A DNA stretch of 64,000 bases. Source: Rubripirellula sp. (GTDB lineage: Bacteria; Planctomycetota; Planctomycetia; Pirellulales; Pirellulaceae). Location: assembly GCA_012270385.1 (NCBI GenBank), contig JAAXIK010000289.1, positions 17,248 through 81,247 on the forward strand, read 5' to 3'. A program made the position numbers and the translations under genes. The notes below the pieces were generated by a model. It was not told the DNA's origin. It made no database searches and saw only the letters and a list, made by a program, of their open reading frames with translations. Of the stretch, positions 1-57,089 are shown in pieces (the stretch's first letter is position 1; the number at the start of each line of letters is the position of its first letter).

Positions 1-1721
1 CTCAACAAGACATCTATACGATTACTGCTGAGACCGCCTCAACGAACCTCAGAGCGATCCGCTTGGAAGCACTAACGCATCCATCTCTTCCAGGCGGTGG
101 GCCGGGTAGACACTCTAACTCCAACTTTGTGCTCAGCGAGTTCGAACTGGAAGCAATCTCGATCCTCAACCCCAACAACAGTAGGAAAATTAAATTTAAG
201 AGTGTTGTGGCAGATTACTCGCAACAGGGCTATGAAATCGGCAAAACCATAGATGGGCAAGTTTCCAACAACAGTGGCTGGGCTGTAGACGGACCAACTC
301 GAAAAAAGTCGGCAACAGCGATTTGGGTCGCTAATGAACCTTTTGGATATGAAGGGGGGACTCAATTGAAGTTCACCCTCAAACACCAAGCGAACTTTGC
401 CACACACGGTATTGGTCGCCCAAGGCTATCGATCACCTCGGACATGCGTACCCGATATGAATTCACTAATATTCCAAAATCCATCCTCGCCAAAATTGAG
501 AAACCCTTTGAAGAATTGGCAGAGAAGGAACAGCAGGAATTGACCGCATATTTTCTTGAAAAACATGATCCACGCGCTGACCTTCGTCGGCAAATAGAGA
601 ACTTGCAAAATAAATTGAACCAGCTGATTCCCACAACAATGGTAATGGCTGAGCTCTCGCAACCGCGCACGACCCATATTCTCGAACGTGGACAATATGA
701 TCAACCTGGGGCACCGGTCACCGCAGGCGTTCCAGAATGTTGTTCAGCATCGACGAAGATGGAAATCAAGAACCGGCTTGATTTTGCGACGTGGCTAACC
801 GAACCCAATCACCCACTTACTGCACGTGTTGCTGTAAATCGTCATTGGCGTCGATTATTCGGGCGTGGCTTGGTGGAAACTGCCGAGGACTTTGGCATTC
901 AGGGTGACCTACCTAGTCATCCTGAACTTCTTGATTGGCTCGCTACAGATTTGATCTCTAATGGGTGGGATATCAAATACTTACAACGTCAGATCATCAC
1001 CTCCGCGACCTATCGACAGTCATCCATCGTAGAGCGTGAAAGCTATGAGTTCGATCCTGATAACCAATGGCTATCACGCGGACCAAGATTCAGACTAGAT
1101 GGTGAACAAATACGAGATTCAGCACTTTCAGCAAGTGGATTACTGCACACACAACTTGGAGGAAAGAGTGTCTTTCCCTATCAACCTGAAGGCCTTTGGC
1201 TTGAACTCAATAATCGACCGGGATACTCAAAAGCTTATCCGCAAGGTACTGGGGAGGATTTGGTAAGACGAAGCATCTACTCATTCTGGAAGAGAACGGT
1301 CCCATCACCCATGCTCAAAACCCTTGATGCGCCAGAACGAGAATTCTGCACCATTCGACGCTCCAGGACCAACACACCACTGCAAGCTTTGCTACTGTTA
1401 AATGGTACACAATTCATGGAGGCCTCGATCTTCCTCGGGTCCCGTATGATGCTGGAGGGTGAAGGCGATATAACACAACGAATTGCCTTTGGTTTTCGGC
1501 TGGTGACCTCACGTTTTCCTTCAGAGGAAGAATTAAAGATTTTACGACAAGAGTACAATGCATCTCTGCAACAAACAGTGGATGTGAAAGAAGATGATCC
1601 AAGCTTGGGTTTGGTTATCGTTAAACTTCGTGATCTTCAACTCAACCCAACTCAATTACGCGCCTACGCAAACGTTGCGAGGATCATTCTTAACCTGGAT
1701 GAATCCATCACCAAAAGCTGA
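1..1721 (+). CDS. PSD1/DUF1553 (planctomycete cytochrome c-associated) domain protein, 5'-partial
   Basis: Frame is open from nt 3 (QQDIYTITAETAST...) into the 63..1721 ORF. It has PSD1 motifs RGQYDQPG, HPLTARVAVNRHW, GDLPSHPELLDWLA, RLDGEQIRD, RRSIY and TNTPLQALLLLN, and is followed directly by a DUF1501 gene, the usual partner. Confidence 0.9.
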   Translation, partial: QQDIYTITAETASTNLRAIRLEALTHPSLPGGGPGRHSNSNFVLSEFELEAISILNPNNSRKIKFKSVVADYSQQGYEIGKTIDGQVSNNSGWAVDGPTRKKSATAIWVANEPFGYEGGTQLKFTLKHQANFATHGIGRPRLSITSDMRTRYEFTNIPKSILAKIEKPFEELAEKEQQELTAYFLEKHDPRADLRRQIENLQNKLNQLIPTTMVMAELSQPRTTHILERGQYDQPGAPVTAGVPECCSASTKMEIKNRLDFATWLTEPNHPLTARVAVNRHWRRLFGRGLVETAEDFGIQGDLPSHPELLDWLATDLISNGWDIKYLQRQIITSATYRQSSIVERESYEFDPDNQWLSRGPRFRLDGEQIRDSALSASGLLHTQLGGKSVFPYQPEGLWLELNNRPGYSKAYPQGTGEDLVRRSIYSFWKRTVPSPMLKTLDAPEREFCTIRRSRTNTPLQALLLLNGTQFMEASIFLGSRMMLEGEGDITQRIAFGFRLVTSRFPSEEELKILRQEYNASLQQTVDVKEDDPSLGLVIVKLRDLQLNPTQLRAYANVARIILNLDESITKS

Positions 1722-1759
1722 CCTGACACGGTACTAGAAACACCGCCTACACACTCACC

Positions 1760-3214
1760 ATGCAGACCTTAACACTCCCACACAATTTAGATCGCCGTCG
1801 TTTCTTGGAGCGAACCACCCGCGGTCTGAGCAGTCTTGCCTTAGCAAGTCTTTTGAACAACCAGACTGATCAGGCTCTCGGTGATACGGTAGATGGTGCG
1901 GCGAATCCTGCGAACCCTCTGCCACATTTTGCTGCTAAAGCGAAACGTGTCATCTATATGCTTCAGTCGGGTGCACCGTCTCAAGTTGATCTGTTTGACT
2001 ATAAACAGACGCTGAAAAATCTCCATCTGACTGAATTACCTGATAGCGTAAGACAATCTCAACGTCTGACAGGAATGACCGCTGGCCAAAAGCAGTTTCC
2101 GATCGTTCAGTCACCCTGGAAATTTAATCGACACGGTCAGTCCGGAACACGATTCAGCGAGCTATTACCTCAAATAGGTTCAGTGGCGGATGACTTATGC
2201 GTTATTAAATCGATGCACACCGAAGCCATCAATCACGATCCAGCAATCACTTTTTTCCAATCTGGGAATCAGCAACCGGGTCGACCAAGTGTGGGAGCTT
2301 GGCTTAGCTATGGTCTAGGCAGCGAGACAGAAAATCTACCAGCATTCGTCGTTCTTCTGAATAAAAACTCCTTCTTTCAAGCCCAACCACTTTACGATCG
2401 ACTTTGGGGAAGCGGCTTCCTCCCGTCGAAGTATCAGGGGGTAAAATTTCGGAGTACGGGAGATCCGGTCCTTTACCTAAAAGATCCGCTAAATAGTTCA
2501 GCGTCGATCCGAAGAGCTAGATTAGATCGACTTTCCGCCCTCAACCAAATCCGATCCAAAACAGTGGGTGAGCCAGCAATCGATTCGCGCATTGCACAGT
2601 ATGAAATGGCTTTTAGGATGCAAGCATCGGTTCCTGAATTAACCAATCTAAATGATGAACCGGAAAGCACATTTAAACTTTATGGAGAAGATGCAAAAAT
2701 TCCGGGCAGCCACGCAGCAAACTGCCTGCTCGCAAGAAGGCTTGCTGAGAGAGGAGTACGATTTATTCAGATTTTCCATCGCGGTTGGGATCATCATTCT
2801 AATGTAAAAACACATTTACCGACGCTCGCCAAAGAAACAGACCAAGGTTCGGCAGCACTCATCAAAGATCTTAAACAACGAGGAATGCTCGAAGATACAT
2901 TAGTGATTTGGGCAGGGGAATTTGGAAGAACGGTTTATTCACAAGGCAATCCCAATACTTTTGGTCGAGACCATCACCCCAGATGTTTTTCGATCTGGAT
3001 GGCAGGCGGCGGAATCAAAGGTGGGTATTCTCATGGCGAGACCGACGACTTCTGCTACAACATTATTCAAGATCCAGTCCACGTTCATGATTTTCATGCA
3101 ACGTTGCTCCATTGCCTTGGCATTAACCACAAGCAACTCACCTATCGTTTTCAAGGGCGAGATTATCGATTGACCGATGTTCACGGGAAGGTCGTTCAAG
3201 ATATCCTCGCGTGA
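1760..3214 (+). CDS. DUF1501 family protein (Tat-exported, alkaline-phosphatase/sulfatase-like)
   Basis: Twin-arginine leader DRRRFL; motifs GAPSQVDLFDYK, INHDPA, GWDHH, GEFGRT, GRDHHP, HVHDFHATLLH. Confidence 0.92.
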   Translation: MQTLTLPHNLDRRRFLERTTRGLSSLALASLLNNQTDQALGDTVDGAANPANPLPHFAAKAKRVIYMLQSGAPSQVDLFDYKQTLKNLHLTELPDSVRQSQRLTGMTAGQKQFPIVQSPWKFNRHGQSGTRFSELLPQIGSVADDLCVIKSMHTEAINHDPAITFFQSGNQQPGRPSVGAWLSYGLGSETENLPAFVVLLNKNSFFQAQPLYDRLWGSGFLPSKYQGVKFRSTGDPVLYLKDPLNSSASIRRARLDRLSALNQIRSKTVGEPAIDSRIAQYEMAFRMQASVPELTNLNDEPESTFKLYGEDAKIPGSHAANCLLARRLAERGVRFIQIFHRGWDHHSNVKTHLPTLAKETDQGSAALIKDLKQRGMLEDTLVIWAGEFGRTVYSQGNPNTFGRDHHPRCFSIWMAGGGIKGGYSHGETDDFCYNIIQDPVHVHDFHATLLHCLGINHKQLTYRFQGRDYRLTDVHGKVVQDILA

Positions 3215-4360: not shown

Positions 4361-7294
4361 TCAATCGAGAAAATTCTCTGTTTGCACGAGTGCTCTTATC
4401 AATTTTTGTATTGGATAGCCCTCGCTTCCTAATTCTCTCACGATCTTGTGCGTGACTACACGATCTCCCGGGGTTAGCTCTCTTGCGAGTGCATAACGCA
4501 TAAGATGCTGCGTGAAAGCATTTGCAAACTGCTCAGACTCTCCCAGCAAACGCTTTTTGAACTCGGTCACGTCACTGAAGGCGTCACGCTGAAATAGCTT
4601 GCCGCTCACGTCGACATCTCTGCCATTTTTGTATCTTGTACGCCAACGCCCCGTAATATCGTAATTTTCGAGAGCGAAACCTAACGGATCCAGTTGGTTG
4701 TGACATCCAGAACATGATGGGTTTGCACGATGTTGTGAAAATTTCTCGCGAATCGTTAATTCTGTTCCGCCGGCTTCCTCATCAAGCGGCGGAATATCAT
4801 TTGGTGGGGGGAGAGGGGGATCATTAAATAACACTTCTGTCACCCATACACCTCGAGCAACGGGGTGCGTTCGATTGGGTCCGGAAGTCATGGTAAGCAC
4901 CGCGGCATTCGTCATGATGCCTCCGTAACGAGGATCCTGTACTTCGGCACGATCGAAGGTTGGATCACTCATTAATTTCTTCAGCCGATCTTCGAAAGAC
5001 CTCTGATTTGCTCTCTTCACTTCCCCAAGATCGATGTCAGCAGGAATCTCGGTAAGAGCTTTTCTTGCAACCTTCAATTCCCTCCGTTCTTGGTCAATGA
5101 CTGACATTTGGTTCCCGGTCAACGCAAGGCGGAGTTCCTCATCTGTAAGATAACTTCCACCATACCGGAAAGCGCTCAGAACATCAGTCTCCGATAAAGG
5201 TCGATCGTAGAGTGCTGCACGATCAATACGCACATTCAAGTATCGATTTCCACCAGCAGGTAAATGGCGAAGCCCAAACAATACAGAGGATTCTCCGCTC
5301 TTAAACTTTGCTCGGTTTTTTGTAAAAGATCCGCCGTAGGGCTCTCCATTGCGGTAAAGCTGAGTGGTTCCGTTCTCGTGATAAACCATCACCAAGTGAA
5401 TCAATTCATCCGTGATGTTCTCGGCAAAGGAATCAGGAAAGTCATCCGTTCGAGCAAAGCCGTTGCTTCCGGAAATCCAATGGCGATCTTTTCTTTCGCC
5501 AATCACAATCGAATCAAACAATCCTCCGGGTCCCTGCATGGTCATCAGTCCACCACCTCTCTGATCAAGATCAGACAAAGCAAACAACACTTCGAAACTC
5601 TTACCTGCGAATTCAATCGGTAAAGCCGAACTTTTTAGAAATGACTTTTGAAGGACGACTGCCCCATTTTCGTAAGTGACTGCACCCTCTGCGGTGAGAT
5701 GTAATTCACCAACACTATCTCGCAAATTCTCGTCGAATTCCCAAACTGCATAAGGCTTAAGATCGATTGTATTTGGAACGCCATTTCGCTTCCGTAAGAT
5801 CCCCTCGCGCACCGGCTCGATGATCGCTTCAATTCGTCTTTCATGGTCGCCAATCTGTTGGCGGAGTTTTGCTCGTGCCTGAGCTCGTTCCTCGTTGGTT
5901 TTTTGAATTGCATCCTGGTCAACAGGGTCTGGTTTTAAGTTGCCAAAGTACCACTCTGTCAGAAACTTACTTTGATAGACAACCTCTGGTGATAGGAATT
6001 CGATGATAGATCGATTCTCCAAATAGATCAGATCAAATAACAACAGAGGTTCGACAAGCATGTGCAATCCCGCAGGAGCCTCTGGATTCAAAGAGTAAAA
6101 CCGATTCAGCTTGGGATTGGGTGTAGCCGCCAAAACGTTTTCTAATTGCAGCCATTGAACGGGAAACGAATCAAGGAACCGCTGCACTTTGGCATCAGCA
6201 AGCATTCTTTTCACGGTTTTATCGAGCACATCCGGATCACGTAATTCTCCACTCTCGGCGAGGTCCAACAGTGGAAGATCAGGACCGCTACTCCAAAGGA
6301 AATAGGAGAGCCGTGAAGCTAAAGGGTAACAACTACTCTCTTCAGCTCGAGAAGAAGTTCTGTAGAGGAATAGTGGTGAAGATAATACCGCAGCAGCTAC
6401 TTTCTTCATCCCCTTTTCCACCGAGTGCTCAGCTTCAATCTGAACTAAGGCATATTCGACATATCGTTCCAATGTGGCCACTTCAACGTTCTGCCGAAAT
6501 GCAAGCCTCAGGAAGTCACTCAGGCGACTCCTGACAAGCACTCCCAAGTTCTCTTCAGCTTGGGGTTCAGAAAAAAACTGTGACCAGATACCAACCGTCT
6601 CCGAGTTGAAATCTGGACTCTCAACGATTGACACGCTTAATTTAAAAAAAGAGTCGAGCAAGAGAGGAGATAGCGTAAGTTGATTCGCCTGATTATCGTA
6701 CCCATGCTCGGCTCGCAGATCTTTGGGAAAAGGCTTCACACCCTCCAGGACCGGCTGCTGATGAAGCGATGCGGGCAGTACTCGGACGCGGTCGGGAAGA
6801 TGCTGTTATTGGTTGGCTGTTTCGGAAACCTCCAGATAATTGTCTTCTCGGTGAATGAGTTTTTCCGCGAGGACAAAAAGGTCACGATCAAGCTGAAAAA
6901 GATCTCGCACTGTGTAGTTGTATTGAAACCTGTTTAGGCGGCGGATCGGATTGGGTTCGATCTCGGCATCCTTCACCAACGCTTCTAATCTAGACCTCAT
7001 TGGGATCAGAGCTGCATTCAGAATCGCTTGATCCAATATTTCATGATCCGGAGGCGGCATGGTCCTGTGCGATACTTCTTTGATCACCCGCTCCAAGAGT
7101 GCAGGATTTTCAAAAACCGAGCGAGGACCTTTCTCGACATCCAACCGCACGTCCCCGCTAGGATCATCAGAACTATGACAATCTAAGCAATGGTTCTCGA
7201 TCAATTGGATGGATCCAATGTCTGCTAACTCATTTGCTGCACAGACAGATGCGAACCCAAAGCAGAAACAGGCGACGATCATTTTCATCATCAT
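4361..7294 (-). pseudogene. DUF1592-family (PSCyt/DUF1587/1595/1592/1588/1585) diheme cytochrome c protein with LamG-like insert, interrupted by one in-frame TAA
   Basis: ORFs 6806..7294 and 4361..6739 share a frame. Reading through the TAA at 6806-6808 gives ...SETANQ*QHLPDRVRVLPASLHQQPVLEGVKPFPKDLRAEHGYDN. The N-part has a signal peptide, CLDCH and RRLNRFQYNYTVRDLF; the C-part has LASRLSYFLWSSGPD, HPVARGVWV and CSGCH..LDPLGFALENYD. Confidence 0.85.
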
Positions 7295-7385: not shown

Positions 7386-8750
7386 TCAGCTCCACAGCTC
7401 CGAAATCACACCCGTACTGTCAGCGTAGGAATCCCTCTCCAAGCCCATGAGCTGCGCGATGGTTAGCCACAGGTTGGAGTTGAGTGTTCCACTAGGCATT
7501 TTGATAAATCGACCCTGCTTGATCTGGTTCTGTGCTTTACCTGTAATCATCATGGGTAGATCGTAGTACTGGTGCGTTGCTCCATCACCGAGACCTGCTC
7601 CGAAAGCGACAAGCGAGTTATCAAACATCTTGCTACCATCGACTTCTTGCACCTCTTTCAGTCTCTTCATCAGATACGCAAATTGTTCCATATGGAAAAT
7701 ATCGATCTTCTGTAGCTCTTTATAACCTTCACCCTTTTGATTATGCGTCATGTTATGGTGCTGCACGGGCTGATCGAATACACCTTCATACATCAATGTT
7801 GCGTCCCATCTTTCAGGGCCAATCATAAATGTCGCTACATTGGTGATTCCCATCTGAAATGCCAAGAGCATGAGATCCATCTGTAGCCTGATGTATTCAC
7901 CTCTCGGCAATACCTCATTTTTAGGAATATTAAGATCTACGCCTGAAAGCATCTGGTCCATCTTGGAAATACGCAACTCGATACTGCGAACCATTTCCAT
8001 ATACTCGTCTAACGTACGTCGATCTTTTGATCCGAGTTTGTTGGCGAGGCTGCGAGCATCCGCAAGTACCAAATCTGATACCTCCGTTACGTGAGATCGA
8101 TAGCTTTCTTTCAAAAACAGGCGATCATACAGCTTCTGTGGATCCCTGATTGAAGGTGCAATTTTACCTGGTCCATACCAGGAAATATTGTCAAATTCGA
8201 TTGGCTCCTTGGGGGCTGTAAAACCGTTACAGCTAATTTCCAGGGTGTTGTAGACAGACGAAAAACCAACAGCGTCCCCGATGACCTGATCTAAAGTTCG
8301 GCCATTGGGATGTGCCATGCCCCGATTTGCAGCTTGCTCTGGAGAAACACTTGTCAAATAACAAGAGGCACCCTGCGCATGCACATCTTGGCCATTTTTG
8401 TAGGTTCGATCCAATCCAGTGATCAACGTAAAGTCTTGAGTGTGTTGCCGAAGCGGCTCCATCGTTGATGTGAGCTCAAGTGGATAGATACCAGGTTTAT
8501 TGAGGAACCTTCGTTCGTTTTTTGTTTTGTCAGCGTTAAATCCACCAATGAAGCCGGGTATTTCCGCTTCTTCTTCTCCGGGAAAAAAACAGCGGCGGAC
8601 AATCCCATTAGGTAAATAGATGATGGCTAGTTTCTTAGTGGGAGCGCTGATGGAGGAGGAAGCTTTGTCCGCCCAAATCAGTGAATCCATCATTGGTAGA
8701 GTGAGGGTTGCCCCACCACCTCTTAAAACTGCTCTCCTTGATAGCTCCAT
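7386..8750 (-). CDS. DUF1552 family protein (Tat-exported)
   Basis: ATG 8750 is preceded by an AGGAGAGG SD. Tat motif LSRRAVLRG; motifs YLPNG, DVHAQG, TLDQVI, QHHNMTH and GDGATHQYYDLP. Confidence 0.9.
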   Translation of the reverse strand: MELSRRAVLRGGGATLTLPMMDSLIWADKASSSISAPTKKLAIIYLPNGIVRRCFFPGEEEAEIPGFIGGFNADKTKNERRFLNKPGIYPLELTSTMEPLRQHTQDFTLITGLDRTYKNGQDVHAQGASCYLTSVSPEQAANRGMAHPNGRTLDQVIGDAVGFSSVYNTLEISCNGFTAPKEPIEFDNISWYGPGKIAPSIRDPQKLYDRLFLKESYRSHVTEVSDLVLADARSLANKLGSKDRRTLDEYMEMVRSIELRISKMDQMLSGVDLNIPKNEVLPRGEYIRLQMDLMLLAFQMGITNVATFMIGPERWDATLMYEGVFDQPVQHHNMTHNQKGEGYKELQKIDIFHMEQFAYLMKRLKEVQEVDGSKMFDNSLVAFGAGLGDGATHQYYDLPMMITGKAQNQIKQGRFIKMPSGTLNSNLWLTIAQLMGLERDSYADSTGVISELWS

Positions 8751-8944
8751 TTTACCTCTCCTGATTAACATCGCCCGAAGGCAGTGAAGATGACGTCATC
8801 ACAGACTTAGCGTAGAGTCCCGCTTGCGTTACACAGTTTAATCGCCACCCATCATCCGAGGGAATCACGCTAACTAATTTCGCGGGATTGCATCCAGTAA
8901 TTGACTATAGATCAGGGAAAATCACCCGACTATCGATAACCGTC

Positions 8945-27266: not shown

Positions 27267-28649
27267 ATGGCATCAAAATCTTGGCAGATCAAACGACGGG
27301 AGGTTTTAAAAGGAGCTGGTATCGCACTTGGCTTACCCTCCCTGGAAGCGATGACCATCAAAAGAGCAGGGGCTTCTTTATCTCCCAAGAATCCACCCAA
27401 GCGAATGATGATCGGCTATATAGCCTATGGGACCTACATGCCAGATGGCCAATCGGGAGTCCGATCAAAAACCCATCCTATTGACCAGCACCCTGAATGG
27501 AGTTGGTGGCCTTGCAGCCAACCTGGCGAGCTAACTTTTAATAAGTCGTCGGAACCTTTCAAGGATTTAAAAAACTATGTGAGCTACCTTCGTGGCCTAG
27601 ATCATAAGGGTGGATGGAAGATGGGTGGCCACAGCTCCGGTGACGTCTTTGCAACCGGGGCCGATATGACGGAGACGGAAAAAACCAACAACATATCGAT
27701 TGATCAAGTGGCTGCTAATCTGCATGGTCATGAAACTCGCTATCGATCATTGGTCTTGGGCACCGAGGGAGGCACAGGATCGTATGGCTCGAGCAAGACG
27801 CTCTCACACCGAGGTCCAGGACGACCGATTCCATCGATGCACAAACCGCAAGAAATCTTCAATCGACTTTTTGATCCTTATTCCGGGAAAGGAATCGAGC
27901 AAGTCAGAGCAACACTTAAACGAGAAGCAAGCATTCTTGATTTACTCTTGGAGCACAGCAAAAGCTTTCACAGGAAACTGGGCCGTCAAGATCAAGAAAA
28001 AATGGATGAGTACCTTGAGTCGGTTCGGTCAATCGAAAAACGTGTTGAACGTACTAGTCAATGGACGCACGAGCCTCTTCCTGTCATGGACACAAAAGGT
28101 CTCAATCTTGATGTAGCCTACAAAGAACCGAAAGAATATATCCGCTGCATGTACGACCTGATCTATCTTGCATTCGTCACTGACTCAACACGTTACGCAA
28201 CTTTGATGCTTGAGAGTGAACAATCCTCAACGTCAGAGATGTGGAATTATGCCACTTATGTGTTGGGCTATAAGGGAGCAACACATGACATCGCGCACAA
28301 ACGCCCAGAAGATTACTCTGGGCAGTGGGATCGTTGGCGTGCAGAGCAACATGCCTACTTTCTGAGACGGCTAAGAGACACCTCGGAGGGTGATGGCAAT
28401 ATGCTTGACCACACCGTTGTTCTTTGGGGATCAGCCCATCCCCACGCATCGCACAGCACTAGAAATTATCCGATTCATCTAGCTGGCGGTAATCGCTTAG
28501 GCTTCAAGCATGGCAGGTTGCATGAATTCATCGGTGACAAAAAAGTTCCATTAGCGAACCTATTTGTTTCCATGCTCAATGCGATAGATGTGCCGGTAGC
28601 GCAATTCGCTGATAGCACCGGATCCATGAGTGAATTGATGAAGGGTTAA
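27267..28649 (+). CDS. DUF1552 family protein (Tat-exported)
   Basis: IKRREVLKG..LPSLEAM, GGHSSGD, ISIDQVAA, DSTRYAT, THDIAH, SHSTRNYP, FADSTG. Confidence 0.92.
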   Translation: MASKSWQIKRREVLKGAGIALGLPSLEAMTIKRAGASLSPKNPPKRMMIGYIAYGTYMPDGQSGVRSKTHPIDQHPEWSWWPCSQPGELTFNKSSEPFKDLKNYVSYLRGLDHKGGWKMGGHSSGDVFATGADMTETEKTNNISIDQVAANLHGHETRYRSLVLGTEGGTGSYGSSKTLSHRGPGRPIPSMHKPQEIFNRLFDPYSGKGIEQVRATLKREASILDLLLEHSKSFHRKLGRQDQEKMDEYLESVRSIEKRVERTSQWTHEPLPVMDTKGLNLDVAYKEPKEYIRCMYDLIYLAFVTDSTRYATLMLESEQSSTSEMWNYATYVLGYKGATHDIAHKRPEDYSGQWDRWRAEQHAYFLRRLRDTSEGDGNMLDHTVVLWGSAHPHASHSTRNYPIHLAGGNRLGFKHGRLHEFIGDKKVPLANLFVSMLNAIDVPVAQFADSTGSMSELMKG

Positions 28650-28652
28650 TCC

Positions 28653-29399
28653 ATGCGAATTTATCTTGCTCTCGTACTCACTCAGCTAACCATTACTTTT
28701 TGTTTTTCCGATCAGGAGCACGAGTCTGCGAATGTACCACGCGTTCTAATCATCGGTGACAGTACATACACTCAACATACGCGAGAGTTAGGCAAGGCTC
28801 TCCAAGACAGGTGCCAAATCACCTACGCAATGATCAATCCTGACGAAATCGTAGACTCGAAGAGTACGATTCATTTACTGGATCGACATCTTGGAAGAAT
28901 TGATCGAAACGGAAAAAAAATCGATCCTGAATACTGGCCTAGCTGGGACTTGATCCATTTCAACTGTGGGCTTGGTGATCTGATCCACCGCACACCGCAG
29001 ATGAAATCGTTTCGGGTGATGCCTATTCACGTAGGCGGGATCCGCAATACCTCTGAAAAGGAATACGCTCAGAATCTAGATACGTTAGTGAGGGCGTTGA
29101 AGGAGCGGGCTCCAAAAGCAAAGCTCGTATGGGCTAGCACGACTCCGATTCGCGCCTCAGCAAGCAACGTATTTGAATTGGGATCCGAAGTTCAATACAA
29201 CCAGATTGCGGCCTCAGTGATGCAGAAGCATAACGTTGTAATCAACGATATGTACAGCTTTACCAAAGAGTTGATTGATATGGAGAAACCAGCCGGCTTC
29301 GGAGCAGATCCATTCCACTTCGATAAAAAATCACTCCATCCAGGGATCACTCGAGTGCTCGAACAGGCATTCAATCTTCCCAGTGAAACGACAGAGTAA
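28653..29399 (+). CDS. SGNH/GDSL hydrolase family protein
   Basis: PRVLIIGDS (block I), HFNCGLGD (block III), VWASTTP and DPFH (DxxH); signal peptide; 3 nt after the DUF1552 stop. Confidence 0.88.
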   Translation: MRIYLALVLTQLTITFCFSDQEHESANVPRVLIIGDSTYTQHTRELGKALQDRCQITYAMINPDEIVDSKSTIHLLDRHLGRIDRNGKKIDPEYWPSWDLIHFNCGLGDLIHRTPQMKSFRVMPIHVGGIRNTSEKEYAQNLDTLVRALKERAPKAKLVWASTTPIRASASNVFELGSEVQYNQIAASVMQKHNVVINDMYSFTKELIDMEKPAGFGADPFHFDKKSLHPGITRVLEQAFNLPSETTE

Positions 29400-37367: not shown

Positions 37368-38708
37368 CTACGAAAGAAGGTCAGAAAACTCCCCGGTACT
37401 ATCGGCGAATCGCTCCGCTGGAATGCCGAGTCGATCTAGGATGGTAACAAAGAGATTCGAGAGTCGCATGTCCTTCTCGCTGTACCTGAGATACTGGCCG
37501 TGCTGGATTCCCAAGGCACTACCACCGGCAAGTAAGAGAGGGTAGTTATGGTTATTATGGGTACGACTGTTACTCGATCCGTAGAGTACGATGGTGCGAT
37601 CCAGGACGGATCCCTGTCCCTCCTGAGCATCCGCTAGGCTTTGTAAAAATCTTGAATGATTTTGCGCGAGGAATTGGTCGAACATTCCAAGCTTCTCAGC
37701 TCCACCTTTTTTTCCTGCTCCATGTGCCAATCCATGCCAGTTACCCGGAAGACCTAAGCACGCCGGAAAAGCATTGGCGATGGTTGTTGCACCTGCCACT
37801 TGCCCCATCATATACGTCGCTACCCGAGTCGAGTCAGTACGAAATGCGAGGGACATCAGATCATACATTGCCCTGATGTATTCTTTTGGACCCTCTTGCG
37901 TTGCTTCAAGATCTAGGATGTCTGCGTTCACCTTTGGCTTCGGTATTTCCAACCAAGACTCTGCACGACCGACACGCTGTTCCACTGCATCAACGGACGC
38001 CAAGTACGCATCCAACTTTTCTTGATCACTCTTCCCAAGCTGTCGGCTCAATGATCGCGAATGCTCTAGCACACGATCCAACATACTCGCAGAATTCTTC
38101 AATCGTCTACGCGCTGTGGTTGCATCACGTTCTGTTTCCTGTCCAAATAAGCGATTATAAATTCTCCTTGGACTTGATAACGCTGGTAATGGCCTACCTT
38201 CTCGAGAGAAGGACAAAGTCATCGATCGAGTCGGCTCTCCAACACCGCCATCACTTGACATAATCAGAGATGCATAGCGAGTGCTGTTACCAAACCGCTC
38301 TGCCACGAGTTGATCCAACGAAATGGTATTCTCGAAAGAGCCATTATCCAGCTTAGCACCGGTTAGAAAAATATCTCCCGTATCGTGCCCACCCATGGAC
38401 CAGCCGTTAGGATGAGAGATGCCGCCGATGACGGTGACCTCCTTTCGCAGTGGTTCCATCGATTCCAAAACATTTGTGAATCGATATTCCTTTTTCGAAC
38501 CCTCCGGAAACCATCCCCACTTCTTATCTGCGTCAGAGGGTGTCGCTACCACTCCAAAAGGCCAATAGACAGCGCAAAATCGATTCGGTAAATCAGCATC
38601 TCCCGAAGCTGCGCCTGCCATCCCTTCCATCCATGGCAGAGCCATGGACACACCAGAGCCTCGCAAAAATGTTCGTCGGCTAAGATGCCACGATTTTTTT
38701 GTCATCAT
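37368..38708 (-). CDS. DUF1552 family protein (Tat-exported)
   Basis: LSRRTFLRG..LPWMEGM, GGHDTGDIFLTG, ISLDQ, DSTRVAT, WHGLAH, THNNHNYP, FADSTG. Confidence 0.92.
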   Translation of the reverse strand: MMTKKSWHLSRRTFLRGSGVSMALPWMEGMAGAASGDADLPNRFCAVYWPFGVVATPSDADKKWGWFPEGSKKEYRFTNVLESMEPLRKEVTVIGGISHPNGWSMGGHDTGDIFLTGAKLDNGSFENTISLDQLVAERFGNSTRYASLIMSSDGGVGEPTRSMTLSFSREGRPLPALSSPRRIYNRLFGQETERDATTARRRLKNSASMLDRVLEHSRSLSRQLGKSDQEKLDAYLASVDAVEQRVGRAESWLEIPKPKVNADILDLEATQEGPKEYIRAMYDLMSLAFRTDSTRVATYMMGQVAGATTIANAFPACLGLPGNWHGLAHGAGKKGGAEKLGMFDQFLAQNHSRFLQSLADAQEGQGSVLDRTIVLYGSSNSRTHNNHNYPLLLAGGSALGIQHGQYLRYSEKDMRLSNLFVTILDRLGIPAERFADSTGEFSDLLS

Positions 38709-38791: not shown

Positions 38792-41650
38792 TTACTTACT
38801 CTGGAAGACCTCGCTCTGCGCTATCTTCACAATCAACCGACTTAGGCGAAAGCCACTCTCTCTAAAGTCAACAACTAATTCTTCAACGACCAGTCGATCC
38901 TCCAGCACAAGCGACCGACCCAGCGCATAGGCCAACATATTTTTGACAATAGCCCTCGCTAGCCGTTCTTGTTCGTTCTCTAACAGATAATCCTTCAGGT
39001 CCTGAACCCCATCGATTTTCGTACCGTTGGGCAACACCGTCATCTGATCGACAGCACTGCGCACTGTCTTTTTTCCCACTTTCCGTTGCACTTGTTGACG
39101 TGCTAAGCCAATCGCATCGAACCCTTCGAAGGCGATTCCCCAAGGATCAATGCCGCGATGGCAGTCGTTGCAGGCTGACTTGGTTCGATGAATTTCAAGC
39201 TGTTCTTTGAGCGACAAGGAGACAAAATCTGGCTGTTCAGAATTGAGCTCCGGTACATCAGGTGGAGGTGGAGCAGGCGGGTCATCCAGAAGTCGATCTA
39301 AAATCCAGACAGCACGACGTATCGGATGAGAATCCTCGCCATCTGAATTGATCATTAAAAAACTAGCCTGCGTGAGCAAACCACCCCTCACGGAATCCGG
39401 CTCTAACTCGACGCGTTCAAAGACCTGTCCCTTTGGGTATCCGTTGGGATTGAAAATCCCATAGTGCTTTGCGAGCGGTTCGTTAAGCATAAGAAAATCG
39501 GAATCAAGGAGATTCATGATATTCAGATCTTGCGTAAGCAATTCGCCGAAAAACTCGCGTGTCTCATCCTTCATGGATGACTTTAGCTTATCGTCAAATT
39601 CTCGGTAGTAGTTGGGATTAATTGCAACGCGGTCTAAGCCATCGAGATCAAGCCATTGATCGGTGAAGTGTTTCACAAAGCGTTCTATACGAGAATCGGA
39701 AATCATGGAGAGCACTTTCTCTTCTAACACACTCTCTTTCGAGAGAAGATTAGAGTCCGCTAGTCTACTCAGCTCTTCGTCTGGCATCGTCGACCAAAGA
39801 AAATACGAAAGTCGTGACGCTAACTCATATTGGCTAAGCTTTTGATTTTGCTCTGAACCCGGTTCAACTAGGTAAAGAAACTCGGGAGAGATTAATATCA
39901 TCGCAAACGCTTCCCGCATCGCTTCCTCGAAGGATGGTGAAGCTGAACGTACCTGATCGTAAAAGGCAAGCACCGGTTCAACGTCGGTCACGCTCACGGG
40001 CCGCCGATAGGCTCGTCTCATGAAATTCTTAATCGCCAGCTTGGCGCGGTTTCTCTCTGGCCCATCAGATTTTGGCAACAACTGAGTATGGGATCGAGGA
40101 GGCCAGGTTTCGTACAAAGGACCTTCAAACTCAACGTAATCAACGACGAGAGCACTTCGAGGTGGTCCACTCGGCTCGGAATAAAACAGTTTTTTAGGAT
40201 AACGATCAATGGGATCAATACCCCGAAATGCTGCAAGAATCTGATGCCGCATCTCGAGGCTCTTTTGATTTAGATTTCTATACCGTGCAACGACCTCATC
40301 CGGATCCTCTTGAAGCATTTTCGCGAGATTTTTTAGTGCGTTAATTTCTTGATCAAGAGCCACCTGAATATCAAAAACCCGATACGCTAAATCGGTGCGG
40401 TTCACATGCTCCGGTGAAATAAGCCTCAGTTCCTCAATTTGCTTCTGAAGCTTATCGATTGAGGTTGTCGTTTTCTCCGCTAATGGAACACCCTTAATCT
40501 GATCCTGCGAGAAGGGCAGCTTAGGTCTGTTATTTTTTGTCGACTCCCCAATCTGTTTCTTTTGTTCTGAGTTGAAAGTGATAGCCCGGTATTTCTGCAC
40601 CTTCGGAGGTGGCAGTCCGTCATCGTAGGTATTGGACACTGTGATGGTCATGCCTGGAAATTTTGGATTGTGACCTGGTAATGGAAATTCCTCCATTCGA
40701 CCTCGGAACTCGTAGATTTGCTTCCGACTTTCCGAATTTCCTACATCACTTATTCCTAGAACTTTAGAAGGGCTCTGTGTATCTGATCTCATACCGAGAG
40801 ATACTTGCATGACAGGAAACCCCATGTTCTCCGGAACCTCAGAACCCGCCATGACTCGGATAGCAAACTCACCTTCCCGGGGGTATTCCAACATCTTGCC
40901 GGAGAATTTTCCCCCAGGAAGCATCCGATTACCGGTCAGACTTTGATCTCGGTTACTGCCGGCGGTAGATTTCTCAAAGCGATGAAGATGCACTTCAGGT
41001 GCAGGTCCTTGGACGATTACTTTATCAAGTGCATTACGAGCGGCTTCCAAATAGTACTCGATCTGTAATGGAGAAATCCCAAGTGCTGCGCCGTTATTTT
41101 TAAATCCATCAACTGAAGACGGCTCCGGGGGAAGATCGCGAGCAAAATCGAGTTTCACTCCGAGTAAATCTCGCAAAGTATTGTTGTACTCGTATCGATT
41201 CAATCTTCGCATGACTACCTGATTGCGATCACCTTTCCTTTCTCTCGCGACTCGATCCAGATTATCGCGGATCCATTTTGTCAACTCGGTTCGAGATTCC
41301 GAATCGATGGGTTGCTGCTCAGCGGGTGGCATTTCACCGCTGGCTACTTGATTAAGAACGTCATGCCACGTCTCCGCTGATAGTCCTTGAAATGTAGGAT
41401 CCAGAGAATCAATGCGAAGCATTGCCTTTGATTCCTCGGGACCATGACACGACACGCAGTTTGCAGCCAGGATCGGCTCAATGACATTGGCGTTCTTGTT
41501 GGAACCCAAATTTGATGGCTTGGCGCGGCTACCATCAATCTCTTGGCCGAAGCTTAAGGAAGATGGGATACCGGTTACTATCACCAACAAAAGTGCTGGC
41601 AAGGTCGCTGAATACCATCCTTGTTCAAGTTCGGCGCGAAGAGAGTTCAA
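38792..41650 (-). CDS. DUF1592-family diheme cytochrome c protein with helical insertion
   Basis: CVSCHG, GEMPP, RRLNRYEYNNTLRDL, YELASRLSYFLWSTMPD, SHPIRRAVWI, CNDCH..IDPWG. The TTG start is uncertain. Confidence 0.9.
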   Translation of the reverse strand: MNSLRAELEQGWYSATLPALLLVIVTGIPSSLSFGQEIDGSRAKPSNLGSNKNANVIEPILAANCVSCHGPEESKAMLRIDSLDPTFQGLSAETWHDVLNQVASGEMPPAEQQPIDSESRTELTKWIRDNLDRVARERKGDRNQVVMRRLNRYEYNNTLRDLLGVKLDFARDLPPEPSSVDGFKNNGAALGISPLQIEYYLEAARNALDKVIVQGPAPEVHLHRFEKSTAGSNRDQSLTGNRMLPGGKFSGKMLEYPREGEFAIRVMAGSEVPENMGFPVMQVSLGMRSDTQSPSKVLGISDVGNSESRKQIYEFRGRMEEFPLPGHNPKFPGMTITVSNTYDDGLPPPKVQKYRAITFNSEQKKQIGESTKNNRPKLPFSQDQIKGVPLAEKTTTSIDKLQKQIEELRLISPEHVNRTDLAYRVFDIQVALDQEINALKNLAKMLQEDPDEVVARYRNLNQKSLEMRHQILAAFRGIDPIDRYPKKLFYSEPSGPPRSALVVDYVEFEGPLYETWPPRSHTQLLPKSDGPERNRAKLAIKNFMRRAYRRPVSVTDVEPVLAFYDQVRSASPSFEEAMREAFAMILISPEFLYLVEPGSEQNQKLSQYELASRLSYFLWSTMPDEELSRLADSNLLSKESVLEEKVLSMISDSRIERFVKHFTDQWLDLDGLDRVAINPNYYREFDDKLKSSMKDETREFFGELLTQDLNIMNLLDSDFLMLNEPLAKHYGIFNPNGYPKGQVFERVELEPDSVRGGLLTQASFLMINSDGEDSHPIRRAVWILDRLLDDPPAPPPPDVPELNSEQPDFVSLSLKEQLEIHRTKSACNDCHRGIDPWGIAFEGFDAIGLARQQVQRKVGKKTVRSAVDQMTVLPNGTKIDGVQDLKDYLLENEQERLARAIVKNMLAYALGRSLVLEDRLVVEELVVDFRESGFRLSRLIVKIAQSEVFQSK

Positions 41651-53130: not shown

Positions 53131-55806
53131 TCACCGAGTTGCAAATACTGAACTCTTCGTGATGGCAATGATTAAATCTCGCAGCCCATATCCAGTTTCC
53201 GCCACACGGCTTGCGATTGCGTTTATCTCGCCTTGATCTTGAAAAGTCATGGTGCGCCCAGTGGCATACGACATTAACTTTTCAGTCAGCGCCTGGGTCA
53301 CGCGATCTTTTCGTTGGATCAGCAACTGCTTGAGATCGCCCTCATTGGCAAATGATTCTCCGGAGGGCAGTCTGCCTGATCCGTCTATCAAGATCCCCTT
53401 TTGACCACGCATGGGGTAGGTTTCACGAAAAGCGCCAATCGGATCATAAAACTCCAAGGCAAACCCCACCGGATCAATCCTTGAGTGGCAATCTCTGCAA
53501 GCTTCTACAGTTCGGTGCTTGGCGAGTTGGTCTCGCACACTTGTAGTACCACGTGTATCGGGTTCAATTGCGGGGACGTCTGCTGGTGGTGCGGGCGGTG
53601 GAGTTCCTAAGATTTTCTCTAACACCCAGACGCCTCGTACAATCGGAGAGGTTTCAATCCCATTCGCACTGAGTGTCAATACGCTTCCCTGACCAAGCAA
53701 GCCCCCACGTCGATGCTTCGGCTCCAGTGTCACCTTACGGAACCGCTCACCCTCCACTCCATCAATACCATAGTGTGCTGCGAGCGTATCATTAACAAAG
53801 GTATAATCACTCTGAATCAAATTGAGAATGGAATGATTGGTTTGCAACAGTTCTGAAAAATAGAGTCGTGTTTCCTTCTTAAATAAGTCCTCCAACCGGT
53901 TGCGGTAATAAGCCTCAAATGCTTTGGGATCAGGGGGCATCGATCCAAGAGTGTTGATCCCTAGCCAGGTATCTGTGAAATGCTCGACGAATGCTTCTGA
54001 CCTTTCATCATTAAGCATACGAAGCACGTGAGATTCAATCTGCTCCAAGGTAGTCAGCTTGCCCGATTCCGCAGCATTGATCAATTGTGCATCTGGCATA
54101 CTGCTCCAAAGAAAATAGGATAGCCTTGAAGCCAACTCGTAGGAATTCAGTCTTGAATTCTCTTCATCGTTTCCTTCATCTAGATAAAGAAACCTCGGTG
54201 ATGTCAACATTGCAGCCATGGATAACTTAATGGCTTCACTAATTGAGTCACCAAGTTCTATTCTTTGCTCCGTAAAATCAACATAGTGTTCAATTTCATG
54301 CTCCTCGATGGGTTGTCGAAATGCACGACGAGCGAATTTCTGAAGTGTCTGTTCCGTATCGAGAACGGCCTCCTCTGTAGATCTCCCATACAAGATTTGG
54401 TGACTTTGGGGTGGCCATTGTTCCACATCAGGACCTTCAATCTTCATCTCCCAAATACGAACACGGGGACCTCTGTAAACCTCTGAGAGCAGGGCATTAC
54501 CTTCATTTTTCTTGAGCTGATCAACCAAAGTTTTCGCTTGAGGATCACCTAATGCTGCGGCGTCTAGTTGAGTCTGTGTTGCTCGGATAACCTCCGGATG
54601 ATATCTCTCAGCAACACGTCGTATATTTCCTTTCGAGCTAATCCCATTGGTCCAACTGACGAACGGGATCGCTCCTTTTTCCAGCCATACTCGTTGGGTG
54701 AGTTCTTCGGGTTCGCCGTCGGGGAGATCCCAAACCTTCACTAACCTTCGCTGATCAGCAGCGTTCTTCTCAAGCAATGCTGCCTCGGGTGCAATCCAGA
54801 GAGCAAGCTTCAATTTTTCTTTGGTAAAACGATCAAACTCTTGATGTTGATATCCATGATCGAGCCGATTTGCCGCAGCCGCCTTGAGTGTAATTAAATA
54901 CCAGCCTTCGTTAGGTACTCCCCCATCCCTAGCGAACGATTTCACAAAGTTGGGATGACGTTCACTGGGCTGACCATGACCTATTTCTAGATAATCCTCA
55001 TCCACTATCAGCCGCCAGGTTACGGGCGCCCGCTGATAGGCACTCACTCCGTTGAAGTCGACACCTCGATAGGACCAGCTTTTACTGATTGGCTGATCGA
55101 CACCAAAAAATGTCGCTGTATCGATGGCTGATTTTGCCACCTCAAGGTAACGCTGCAACTGATAGTCTGACAGGATCAGCGCTTCCCCGTTATTGTCGAA
55201 ACCATGCTCCGTTGCATCGACTGGAAAATCCGAGGTCACGTCGAAATACTCACGATTCAATCCGAGCAAGTCTCGCATTGTATTCACGTATTCAAATCGA
55301 TTGAGTCGACGCATTACCGTAGTCTGTGAAGCATTTGCTTGATTTAACTCGACTAATAATTGTGTTAACACTGCCACTACAGTTCGTGTTTCTTCAGCGG
55401 TTGGCTGAACTACAGATCTTTCACGAGGTGGCATATCACCTCGATTGATTGCGTCTAACACTTCTTCGAGCAAGTCGATCGCATCATCCCCCACACTGAT
55501 CCTTGGTGGTATCGAGTCAAATCTCCGATCACCTTTTTGCTGGTTCCCACCATGACAACCATAACAATATTGCTGCAGGTATTTTGTGACTTCTGGATCT
55601 ATCAAATCATTTGAAGCATGGGATTTTGAATTTGTTGTCAGTAAGCTGAACCAAACCATCAAAGTCAGGTTGATGCATTGCCTCCAAAAGATCACTCCAT
55701 GGGATTGATTACCTCTCCGGTGATAGTTGATCATCCCGTGCCGCTGAGCAAAGGAAACGAGGATCGCAACGACAGAGAGATTCAACCACTTGGTTTGCCA
55801 ATTCAT
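53131..55806 (-). CDS. DUF1592-family diheme cytochrome c protein
   Basis: CYGCHG, GDMPP, RRLNRFEYVNTMRDL, YELASRLSYFLWSSMPD, TSPIVRGVWV, CRDCH..IDPVG. Its start overlaps the DUF1552 stop (ATGA). Confidence 0.92.
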   Translation of the reverse strand: MNWQTKWLNLSVVAILVSFAQRHGMINYHRRGNQSHGVIFWRQCINLTLMVWFSLLTTNSKSHASNDLIDPEVTKYLQQYCYGCHGGNQQKGDRRFDSIPPRISVGDDAIDLLEEVLDAINRGDMPPRERSVVQPTAEETRTVVAVLTQLLVELNQANASQTTVMRRLNRFEYVNTMRDLLGLNREYFDVTSDFPVDATEHGFDNNGEALILSDYQLQRYLEVAKSAIDTATFFGVDQPISKSWSYRGVDFNGVSAYQRAPVTWRLIVDEDYLEIGHGQPSERHPNFVKSFARDGGVPNEGWYLITLKAAAANRLDHGYQHQEFDRFTKEKLKLALWIAPEAALLEKNAADQRRLVKVWDLPDGEPEELTQRVWLEKGAIPFVSWTNGISSKGNIRRVAERYHPEVIRATQTQLDAAALGDPQAKTLVDQLKKNEGNALLSEVYRGPRVRIWEMKIEGPDVEQWPPQSHQILYGRSTEEAVLDTEQTLQKFARRAFRQPIEEHEIEHYVDFTEQRIELGDSISEAIKLSMAAMLTSPRFLYLDEGNDEENSRLNSYELASRLSYFLWSSMPDAQLINAAESGKLTTLEQIESHVLRMLNDERSEAFVEHFTDTWLGINTLGSMPPDPKAFEAYYRNRLEDLFKKETRLYFSELLQTNHSILNLIQSDYTFVNDTLAAHYGIDGVEGERFRKVTLEPKHRRGGLLGQGSVLTLSANGIETSPIVRGVWVLEKILGTPPPAPPADVPAIEPDTRGTTSVRDQLAKHRTVEACRDCHSRIDPVGFALEFYDPIGAFRETYPMRGQKGILIDGSGRLPSGESFANEGDLKQLLIQRKDRVTQALTEKLMSYATGRTMTFQDQGEINAIASRVAETGYGLRDLIIAITKSSVFATR

Positions 55807-57089
55807 CCGTTCACCTCGAGACCATCCAAGGTTCCACGAGCCGTACCAAACTGATCGATTTCTGGGTTGAATCGTTTCAGCATGGAGACAAAAAGTCTAC
55901 CTGCTTCCGTGCTAAGATTTCTCGATTCATCTTTAAAATGAGAATGGTGGGCGCCATGCTTAAAACCGCCTCCCGCCAAAATGAGAGGCAAATTTTTATT
56001 TGAGTGAGAGCTCGCGTTTCCCATGCCCGAACCAAATAACACCATGGTATTGTCCAACAAGGAGAGGCCATTCACGTCTTGGCGGCTAGCAAGCTTTTTC
56101 AGAAATCTTGCTAACTGTTCCATATGGAATTGCTCAATGATGGAGAGCTCGGTGATGTATTCGGGCACTTTGCCATGGTGTGTCAATTGATGATATCCGC
56201 GACTGATACTGAAACCGCCAAAGTTAGCACCAATATCAGCGAGTCCGAGCGAAAGAATTCGTGTTGAATCTGTCTCTAACGCTAGTTCCATTAGGTCGTA
56301 GTAAAGGGGAACCCTTTCGATAAACGGTAAACCACCCGCAGCATCAGGCATCTGGTAATCAACACTTGCTTTAGGCTTATCCAGCCATTGATTCGATTTC
56401 GCGATTTTGCGCTCTACCGAACGTACCGTTTCAAAGTATCTATCTAATTTCCTTCGATCCCTCGCACCAACTCTCTTTGTGAGCAAATCCGCATCATTTT
56501 TTACAAGATCCAAAATACTCTTTTGTGCCGCGAGTGCCTGTTGTCGTTGATCACGAAGAGCAGGATCCGTCTTTTGAAACAGTAGACTAAAGATTCTTTG
56601 AGGATCAGAAATGGGTGGAATTGATACTCCGGATGCACTCCAAGAAAGCATGTTATTTGGATCATTACCGGAAGCAAACTGAAGCGATGCAAAACGATTT
56701 TTCGAACCGACTACCTGTGCTGCTTTCTGATCGACGCTTATGTTTGCCTCCGGCATCCCTGCTGAATTCTTGGAAAGCACTCCCGACAGAAAAGCATGAA
56801 CACCGCCGTGCCCACCCTGTGCATTGACACCATGATCTAGTCCGGAGAAAACGGAAAATTTATCGCGTACTCCAGCCAACGGTTTGAGTCGGTCAGTCAG
56901 TTCGTAGTTCTCTCCAGTTTGCTTTGGAAAAAATAGTTGAGGAACTAACCCAAAATTCAGACCCACGCATACCATGCGCATCGGGTCTTCCGAATCAGAC
57001 GTCTCTGCCATGAGATCTAGACAGGGTAGGGCCATTAAAGCTCCACCACAGCCACGAAGCGTAGTCCTTCGATTCAGATTCATACTCAC
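55803..57089 (-). CDS. DUF1552 family protein (Tat-exported)
   Basis: LNRRTTLRG..LPCLDLM, GGHGG, ISVDQ, DSTRI, YHQLTHHG, GMGNASSHSNKNLP. Confidence 0.92.
   Translation of the reverse strand: MSMNLNRRTTLRGCGGALMALPCLDLMAETSDSEDPMRMVCVGLNFGLVPQLFFPKQTGENYELTDRLKPLAGVRDKFSVFSGLDHGVNAQGGHGGVHAFLSGVLSKNSAGMPEANISVDQKAAQVVGSKNRFASLQFASGNDPNNMLSWSASGVSIPPISDPQRIFSLLFQKTDPALRDQRQQALAAQKSILDLVKNDADLLTKRVGARDRRKLDRYFETVRSVERKIAKSNQWLDKPKASVDYQMPDAAGGLPFIERVPLYYDLMELALETDSTRILSLGLADIGANFGGFSISRGYHQLTHHGKVPEYITELSIIEQFHMEQLARFLKKLASRQDVNGLSLLDNTMVLFGSGMGNASSHSNKNLPLILAGGGFKHGAHHSHFKDESRNLSTEAGRLFVSMLKRFNPEIDQFGTARGTLDGLEVNG

Follow-up and report, generated by a model that had tools for sequence, protein, structure and literature searches.

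In the window analysed here, a 64,000-nucleotide stretch of contig JAAXIK010000289.1 from the planctomycete Rubripirellula sp., five two-gene modules encode a cytochrome c-type protein and a partner with a twin-arginine (twin-Arg) leader. We tentatively propose that these pairs are periplasmic metal-and-heme oxidoreductases that act on imported sugars or sugar fragments, likely with paralog-specific substrates, and that they are likely to represent a new kind of sugar-oxidising enzyme rather than an uptake system resembling SusC/SusD. The module and its sulfatase neighbours are already known, so the window itself is no discovery; none of the papers searched contains the structural reading, which opens the question to direct testing.

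An earlier note, made from the sequence of this DNA alone, described four DUF1592-type/DUF1552 pairs and one PSD1/DUF1501 pair, and Pfam agreed on these families at adjacent, co-oriented genes (pairs A to E below, followed by two neighbouring features).

1..1721, plus strand: 3' part of the pair E large subunit, a PSCyt1-PSCyt2-PSD1 diheme-motif protein of 1065 amino acids (Pfam)
1760..3214, plus strand: pair E DUF1501, twin-Arg; conserved H159, D344, H346, E387, and H405
4361..7294, minus strand: pair A DUF1592-type protein with PSCyt1, PSD3, PSD5, PSD4, a Laminin_G_3 insert, PSCyt3, and PSD2
7386..8771, minus strand: pair A DUF1552, twin-Arg; His 131, 339, 343, and 400
24657..27224, plus strand: pair B DUF1592-type diheme-motif protein, CxxCH at 56 and 708
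27267..28649, plus strand: pair B DUF1552, twin-Arg; His 122, 340, 344, and 396
37368..38708, minus strand: pair C DUF1552, twin-Arg; His 108, 325, 329, and 384
38792..41650, minus strand: pair C DUF1592-type diheme-motif protein, CxxCH at 65 and 827; insert related to that of pair B
53131..55806, minus strand: pair D DUF1592-type protein with an N-terminal cytochrome c, PSD3, a jelly roll (240-460), and a helical core
55803..57089, minus strand: pair D DUF1552; His 94, 300, 304, and 362; predicted alkaline-phosphatase/sulfatase fold
28653..29399, plus strand: SGNH/GDSL-like protein, a frequent third gene of the B subfamily
57119..61215, minus strand: sulfatase and GH127 genes in a co-directional run upstream of pair D; listed for context and outside the module

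DUF1552 comes first in pairs A and D, and the cytochrome gene comes first in pairs B, C, and E. By Pfam, all four DUF1592-type genes (A read across its stop) carry PSCyt3 with PSD4 and usually PSD2, PSD3, and PSD5. Pair E is a group II module, with a PSCyt1-PSCyt2-PSD1 protein beside a twin-Arg DUF1501; its PSD1 gene begins ~1.5 kb before the window, and both of its CxxCH motifs lie upstream of base 1. The twin-Arg leaders claimed for the partners were present in all five small subunits and the three claimed His motifs in 4/4 DUF1552 proteins; Sec leaders of the large subunits were assessed by eye, with the starts of C and D uncertain. Two CxxCH motifs had been ascribed to each large protein. 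This description fits each DUF1592-type frame (pair D has CxxCH at 81, MPP at 125, and a C-terminal CxxCH at 770 with H764) but not the separate open reading frames (ORFs) of pair A, where an in-frame TAA at 6806-6808 leaves ORFs of 162 and 792 amino acids with one CxxCH each. Contigs from 4/4 other marine runs have a Ser codon at this position, and the stop is therefore private to this assembly. Single in-frame stops also occur inside family matches on contigs C530, C510, C324, and C368 and at several sulfatase loci, so breaks like that of pair A are not rare in the assembly. The label "His-rich" does not describe the composition of the partners (2.0–4.6% His versus 2.3% genome-wide); its meaning lies in four conserved histidines.

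Several observations bear on the small subunit. First, an AlphaFold2 model of D-DUF1552 (87 sequences, pLDDT 85.6) had sulfatases as its top Foldseek matches (best E 1e-5; 48 matches at E ≤ 1e-3), and VIA comparison of this model gave NPP7 (Z 16.0, root-mean-square deviation (rmsd) 4.0, 248 residues aligned), PafA (Z 15.8), and sulfatases (Z 13–14.3). DUF1552 is predicted to have the α/β/α fold of alkaline phosphatases and sulfatases. Second, when profiles of genome paralogs were compared by hhalign, DUF1552 aligned with DUF1501 over 360 columns (probability 98.7, E 1.8e-16) with the His motifs in register; by these profiles, the two families are full-length homologs. DUF1501 also aligned with sulfatases (probability 95.6, E 1.3e-8), placing a His on the Cys column of CxPxR, and DUF1552 aligned with sulfatases at a probability of 77.1. 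The alkaline-phosphatase fold is assigned from profiles for DUF1501 and from the predicted model for DUF1552. Because DUF1552 and DUF1501 are homologous and both are linked to sulfatases, all five modules appear to use one catalytic scaffold. Neither family had a relative in the PDB by sequence or profile search, and the ESM Atlas gave no usable match for DUF1552. Pfam places DUF1501 in the alkaline phosphatase clan.

Third, conserved histidines of both families align with active-site positions of this superfamily. H159 of DUF1501 falls on the column of the sulfatase Cys and NPP Thr nucleophiles, and H94 of D-DUF1552 aligns with H159. The column is His in 43/43 DUF1552 and 58/58 DUF1501 sequences, none of which has a Ser, Thr, or formylglycine nucleophile there, and the C/S-x-P-x-R motif of formylglycine sulfatases is absent from both families. 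Among host paralogs, H94, H300, and H304 are kept in 43/43 and H362 in 37/43; in 39 DUF1552 proteins from relatives, the corresponding counts are 39, 39, 37, and 39. In weak alignments read by motif, H300-x3-H304 and H362 lie on the Asp-x3-His and last-His columns of the first metal site of iPGM, and these low-probability alignments would give a first-site pattern of His-x3-His...His in DUF1552 and Asp-x-His...His in DUF1501. No acidic residue is conserved at second-site positions 43–47 or 354–357 of DUF1552, and DUF1501 keeps one acidic residue of that site, E387. The pattern suggests one metal bound by as many as four histidines, with classical ester hydrolysis probably lost. NPP and phosphopentomutase-like profiles were rejected as guides to DUF1552 for their low probability, the NPP alignment also being out of register.

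In a predicted complex of pair D, all four of these histidines (H94, H300, H304, and H362) fall within the subunit interface. The modelled chains were residues 160–240 plus 462–891 of D-DUF1592 and 34–428 of D-DUF1552, with heme, a construct that omits the N-terminal cytochrome and the insert. The complex had an ipSAE of 0.81 versus 0.00 for the best of 3 controls, a mark reached by 116/157 solved and 2/215 mismatched pairs, counts that are only roughly valid for the pair D job. Contact agreement between runs was at least 94%, and partner pLDDT was at least 88. DUF1552 is thus predicted to dock on its DUF1592 partner in pair D, with a helical hairpin (188–228) packed on PSD3/PSD5 of the partner in the model. 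Recall of a similar complex is unlikely, because neither chain has a solved profile relative beyond the cytochrome c domain. The modelled His face of DUF1552 is covered by partner segments 193–200, 621–629, 715–718, and 740–752, the last of which is proline-rich and leads to the CxxCH at 770–774; three lid segments that were checked vary among paralogs, as expected of substrate-selecting loops. The partners also co-diverge (Spearman 0.82 for the identity matrices of 68 pairs; shuffled maximum 0.25), although such mirror-tree agreement is weak support for binding because joint duplication alone predicts it. The complex and the co-divergence support the heterodimer suggested in the earlier note, and the fold and His set give computational support to its description as a heme carrier plus metalloenzyme.

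For the large subunit, the D-DUF1592 model (pLDDT 89.2) comprises an N-terminal cytochrome c domain, a helical core, and a β-sandwich insert at 240–460. The modelled insert folds like carbohydrate-binding modules (CBMs) of families 36, 22, 35, and 6 (CBM36: Z 11.4, rmsd 2.6, 119 aligned). The insert of pair A is LamG by Pfam, and among 20 long paralogs CBM60 was found in one and F5/8C in two. These CBM-like inserts give some support to a carbohydrate link through putative sugar binding. Foldseek found nothing for the DUF1592 model at E ≤ 1e-3, and the insert filled its VIA list, so the helical-core fold is not shown to be new; PDB sequence and profile searches returned weak cytochrome c matches only, and the ESM Atlas gave only 0.79 leads for the core. 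Among 75 partners, host-genome members chosen for having the C-terminal motif, two CxxCH motifs were present in 70 and MPP in 64, and in 63 a His (H764 in pair D) stood six positions ahead of the second motif. Covalent heme is predicted from these motifs, and the MPP Met is a candidate distal ligand of heme 1. Neither subunit has an FAD or PQQ domain. Homology between DUF1592 and PSD1-type proteins is not claimed; their hhalign probability was 97.3, and the visible strong part was the shared N-terminal cytochrome.

The pairs are not local to the window. The host genome (5.1 Mb, 553 contigs, 90% complete) has 48 DUF1552 and 70 DUF1501 matches over cut-off, 50 PSD4 matches, and at least 148 sulfatase matches, and its 48 DUF1552 copies compare with 3–15 in ten class relatives. 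A co-oriented DUF1592 gene lies within 650 bp of DUF1552 for 41/48 host copies, the exceptions being mostly near contig ends. In six other genomes, a DUF1592 gene was present at 40/40 DUF1552 sites and a pair was called at 39/40, the remaining site having one ORF that escaped the gene caller. Pairing is a genome-wide rule. The window has 4 DUF1552 genes versus 0.54 expected (Poisson 0.002, for a window chosen after the fact) and is a genuine, dense grouping of a module that is known but uncharacterised. Tandem local expansion was considered and rejected: with the broken pair A left out, pairs B, C, and D are mutually 31–40% identical and their nearest paralogs are mostly elsewhere. By these identities, they are old paralogs gathered in the window, not a tandem burst.

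Clusters of two or three DUF1552 pairs in 10–36 kb also occur on contigs C426, C497, C367, and C308, of which C367 has three pairs and no sulfatase. Orthologues of D and B often adjoin a second, different DUF1552/DUF1592 pair (loci L102, L104, L106, and L114; L199, L200, L202, L211, and L235), and an FG-GAP/esterase-like protein is present at 8 D-orthologue loci. At B-orthologue loci with room, an SGNH-like gene lies directly downstream of DUF1552 in 29/57 cases, 7 in a longer fused form. The catalytic Ser of this third protein is kept in 19/30 and the His in 6/30, and many may therefore be non-catalytic.

Linkage to sulfatases is about twofold overall, subfamily-specific, strong for D, and absent for most pairs. 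In the host, a sulfatase lies within 5 kb of 16/48 DUF1552, 19/49 DUF1592, and 17/69 DUF1501 genes versus 15% of 3748 other genes. When the window contig was removed and flank-matched or crude secreted-gene controls were used, enrichment was 2- to 2.6-fold (p 5e-5 to 0.016): 15/45 DUF1592 genes were near a sulfatase versus 5.7–6.0 expected (p ≤ 0.0003), as were 12/44 DUF1552 genes versus 6.0–6.2 expected (p 0.012–0.016). D orthologues have a sulfatase at 13/25 loci and at 12/17 loci of at least 10 kb, representing 15 distinct sulfatase clusters; for B orthologues the counts are 10/72 loci and 8/31 long loci. Across 60 planctomycete genomes, DUF1552 copy number tracks sulfatase load (Spearman 0.72, first-look candidate counts). 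Presence also follows cytochrome oxidase: DUF1552 was found in 24/42 COX1-positive versus 0/18 COX1-negative genomes of these 60, in which kin are not independent, and by family in 12/22 versus 0/9 (p=0.005).

These properties fit the following scheme. The DUF1552 or DUF1501 chain would fold in the cytoplasm and leave by the Tat route, as expected from the leaders and general knowledge of export, and the DUF1592 partner would leave by Sec and receive two hemes, with the chains meeting in the periplasm. The four histidines would coordinate a single redox-active metal (Fe, Cu, or Mn), and the CBM-like insert and variable lid loops would select a substrate. A sugar held under the lid would be oxidised at the His-metal centre, and electrons would travel from there through the C-terminal and then the N-terminal heme to the aerobic chain and its oxidase. 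Substrates in the window would be pieces of sulfated, acetylated glycans, and other paralogs would take other substrates. At one Sphingobium locus, a copy without the N-terminal heme stands ahead of cytochrome c' and b561 genes, which fits the proposal. We regard as doubtful a bolder form of the proposal, in which DUF1552/DUF1501 proteins would constitute a new class of carbohydrate-active oxidoreductase with an alkaline-phosphatase scaffold, a four-His Fe/Cu centre, and a diheme CBM-bearing partner, and more than 100 paralogous units in a single planctomycete would oxidise sugar residues of recalcitrant marine glycans and feed respiration. If this class were real, sugar oxidation could prime elimination of sulfate or of the glycosidic bond, providing an oxygen-dependent alternative to glycoside hydrolases (GHs) that would explain the inverse pattern of PSCyt genes and GHs described by He et al. 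2017 (PMC5615132).

A number of points weigh against sugar oxidation. No enzyme with the alkaline-phosphatase fold is known to pass electrons to a cytochrome. The iPGM and NPP profile alignments that place the metal ligands have probabilities of 0.6–25. The jelly roll of the D insert also matches Eph receptor and adhesin domains, and a CBM insert is missing from minimal DUF1592 copies. The aerobic bias could stem from heme c alone, and the related genomes are not independent. No sulfatase is nearby (within 5–8 kb) for 32/48 host DUF1552 copies and 31/40 sites in six relatives; in relatives, a sulfatase is near 9/40 DUF1552 sites versus 3/40 control stretches (p=0.11). No GH was found in a Pfam scan at E ≤ 1e-15 that covered 123 of the 160 genes flanking case sites in relatives. 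For the genome-wide enrichment that the earlier note proposed as a check, ~2-fold is seen for sulfatases in the host, and the excess in relatives alone is not significant. A role on sulfated oligosaccharides draws some carbohydrate support from the CBM-like inserts and the ~2-fold sulfatase excess, but most pairs lie away from sulfatases.

An alternative is the same metal/heme oxidoreductase acting mostly on non-carbohydrate small molecules (aromatics, organic acids, or sulfur and phosphorus compounds), with sulfatases as neighbours mainly because both reside in islands of accessory exported genes. At least two thirds of the pairs have no nearby sulfatase; flanks in relatives are mixed (among the 123 genes, DUF1559 five times, sulfatase four times, DUF1501 four times, and a tricarboxylate transporter at 2 loci); in Sphingobium, copies have aromatic oxygenases or hydroxypyruvate/glxR genes close by; and a 59-member exported family, half of it with CxxCH, is equally sulfatase-proximal (34%). 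We nevertheless consider this alternative rather unlikely: outside the window contig the sulfatase enrichment survives flank-matched and crude secreted-gene controls, D orthologues stand by sulfatases in 12/17 long loci with 15 different sulfatase clusters, and CBM-type inserts are present.

It also seems unlikely that DUF1552 and DUF1501 proteins are one-metal, His-nucleophile hydrolases or group transferases acting on sulfate, phosphate, or phosphonate esters, with the cytochrome activating them, presenting substrate, or gating them by redox state. The fold is that of sulfatases and phosphodiesterases, the nucleophile column carries an invariant His, DUF1501 appears to keep an Asp-His-His first site (D344, H346, and H405) together with one acidic residue of the second (E387), and sulfatase neighbours would share substrates. 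On the other side, DUF1552 lacks a Cys, Ser, or Thr nucleophile and second-metal ligands, and a hydrolase would need neither two conserved hemes (70/75) nor an oxidase-bearing host. Finally, the proposal in the earlier note of a capture or sensing unit like SusC/SusD, present once per sulfated-glycan cluster with DUF1552 as a non-catalytic binder, appears improbable: pairs A, B, and D do lie in co-directional runs with a sulfatase, CBM-like inserts are present, and the fold matches include YejM/PbgA, a catalytically stripped binder of alkaline-phosphatase fold, but 32/48 plus 31/40 copies have no sulfatase, neither the module nor the 38 window ORFs scanned include a membrane barrel or transporter, no signalling partner is conserved in the flanks, and five oxidase-bearing genomes with 17–31+ sulfatase matches (G043, G010, G001, G021, and G045) have no DUF1552. 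The invariant His set where an active site would lie speaks for chemistry as well.

Outside Planctomycetota, the range given here comes from 16 plasmid records. Sphingobium, Novosphingobium, and Chondrinema carry copies in varied settings, and those of Sphingobium include non-glycan ones. On pMSHV of Sphingobium herbicidovorans (L128:10295-14486), a minimal DUF1592 (551 amino acids, C-terminal CxxCH only) and DUF1552 precede the cytochrome c' and cytochrome b561 genes, with a TonB-dependent receptor and aromatic oxygenases nearby. On a Sphingobium TomTYG46 plasmid (L130:5990-11796), the order is an IclR regulator, a 406-amino-acid unknown, DUF1592, DUF1552, and a glyoxalase-family gene, with a GH-like protein and hydroxypyruvate/glxR genes as neighbours. 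The plasmid of Chondrinema litorale, a Bacteroidota isolate from a red alga, encodes a 1212-amino-acid DUF1592 protein with an N-terminal DUF2231 membrane domain (L127:11369-16341), which is possibly a membrane-anchored form.

The window itself is a sulfatase/esterase island. A Pfam scan of 38/41 ORFs of at least 150 amino acids found 11 sulfatases, several esterase-like genes, and one glycoside hydrolase (GH127), and among these 38 ORFs no lyase and no TonB-dependent transporter. The sulfatase upstream of pair D has an S1_16 κ-carrageenan sulfatase as its best solved relative (E 1e-51). The closest named relatives of the host are marine Planctomycetota, and its DNA is present in marine and reef metagenome runs. 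Expression from two metatranscriptome runs was not used, because nearly even coverage of 37300-57200, spacers included, leaves DNA carry-over possible.

Other genes of the island include a 1097-amino-acid protein at 11798-15091 (plus strand) with a 3-keto-disaccharide hydrolase domain and a C-terminal cytochrome c (CxxCH 960), and Pfam places DUF6807 at 29499-30467 and 43391-44344 and ThuA from 63079. This fusion, DUF6807, and ThuA hint at oxidative (3-keto) sugar chemistry in the island. A twin-Arg PhoD-like phosphatase (32430-34778), a twin-Arg YHYH protein (18493-19737), and two PQQ_2 β-propeller proteins (15248-16828 and 35830-37344, one directly downstream of pair C) are also present. ORFs 8945-10144 (minus strand, between a sulfatase and pair A), 50996-51550 (plus), and 52526-53116 (plus) have no Pfam match.

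DUF1552 and DUF1501 rank among the largest planctomycete gene families still without an explanation and, in the papers found, have had no function since their naming in 2004; the domains of the module go back to Studholme et al. 2004. Literature searches covering few subscription papers found none reporting a fold, complex, or activity for these modules. He et al. 2017 (PMC5615132) describe PSCyt3 genes adjoining DUF1552 and PSCyt2 genes adjoining DUF1501, CBMs within PSCyt genes, frequent sulfatase neighbours, an inverse correlation with GH density, greater abundance in epilimnion genomes, and possible action on imported mono- or oligomers. Pairing, sulfatase neighbours, and periplasmic action on mono- or oligomers thus predate the glycan hypothesis of the earlier note, which is not new. 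Kamneva et al. 2012 (PMC3542564) describe the DUF1501 module, the twin-Arg signal it carries, and a transfer of electrons to proteins or sugars; a 2022 preprint repeats the DUF1501-module/PSCyt description, and Wecker et al. 2009 give stress regulation of two members of these families. PMC11495043 and PMC4982196 contribute nothing further. The main text and 5 supplements of a fucoidan proteomics study (PMC11685898) do not mention the pairs. With four named histidines, a CBM-like insert, a lid region, and an interface predicted by modelling, the claim can now be tested at the bench, and subfamily D is a first target given its strong sulfatase link. Redox catalysis on an alkaline-phosphatase fold would be chemically new and relevant to how marine sulfated glycans are broken down.

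How do these pairs compare with known systems? They are the group III/DUF1552 and group II/DUF1501 PSCyt modules of the passages cited above (PMC5615132, PMC3542564), with the same domains, pairing, twin-Arg partner, CBM inserts, and sulfatase neighbours, and with the same published guess of periplasmic redox action on mono- or oligosaccharides; the fold, the DUF1552-DUF1501 homology, the active-site reading, the complex, and the quantified enrichment go beyond those passages. DUF1800-DUF1501 operons of Proteobacteria, found beside polysaccharide (chitin synthase) genes (PMC5122149), likewise combine a Tat-exported DUF1501 with a dedicated partner, in their case DUF1800.

Like SusC/SusD of Bacteroidota polysaccharide utilisation loci, the modules consist of two adjacent, co-oriented genes with many co-diverging paralogous pairs. 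Unlike SusC/SusD, they have hemes and an enzyme fold in place of a β-barrel transporter and a SusD-type lipoprotein, and most DUF1552/DUF1592 pairs are not in glycan loci. Fungal cellobiose dehydrogenase and PQQ sugar dehydrogenases offer an analogy of working principle, a catalytic unit with a heme relay and a carbohydrate-binding module, and comparison with cytochrome- and CBM-bearing sugar dehydrogenases is drawn in Text S1 of He et al. 2017 (PMC5615132). The pairs differ in having a proposed His-bound metal centre instead of an FAD or PQQ domain and in being two genes with separate export routes. With the alkaline phosphatase superfamily (NPP, PafA, formylglycine sulfatases, and iPGM), they share the predicted fold (Z 13–16) and, judging from low-probability alignments, perhaps the first-metal-site position. 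They differ from it in that His replaces the Ser, Thr, or Cys nucleophile, the second metal site is apparently lost in DUF1552 and partly kept in DUF1501, and a helical hairpin of DUF1552 is predicted to dock the diheme-motif partner.

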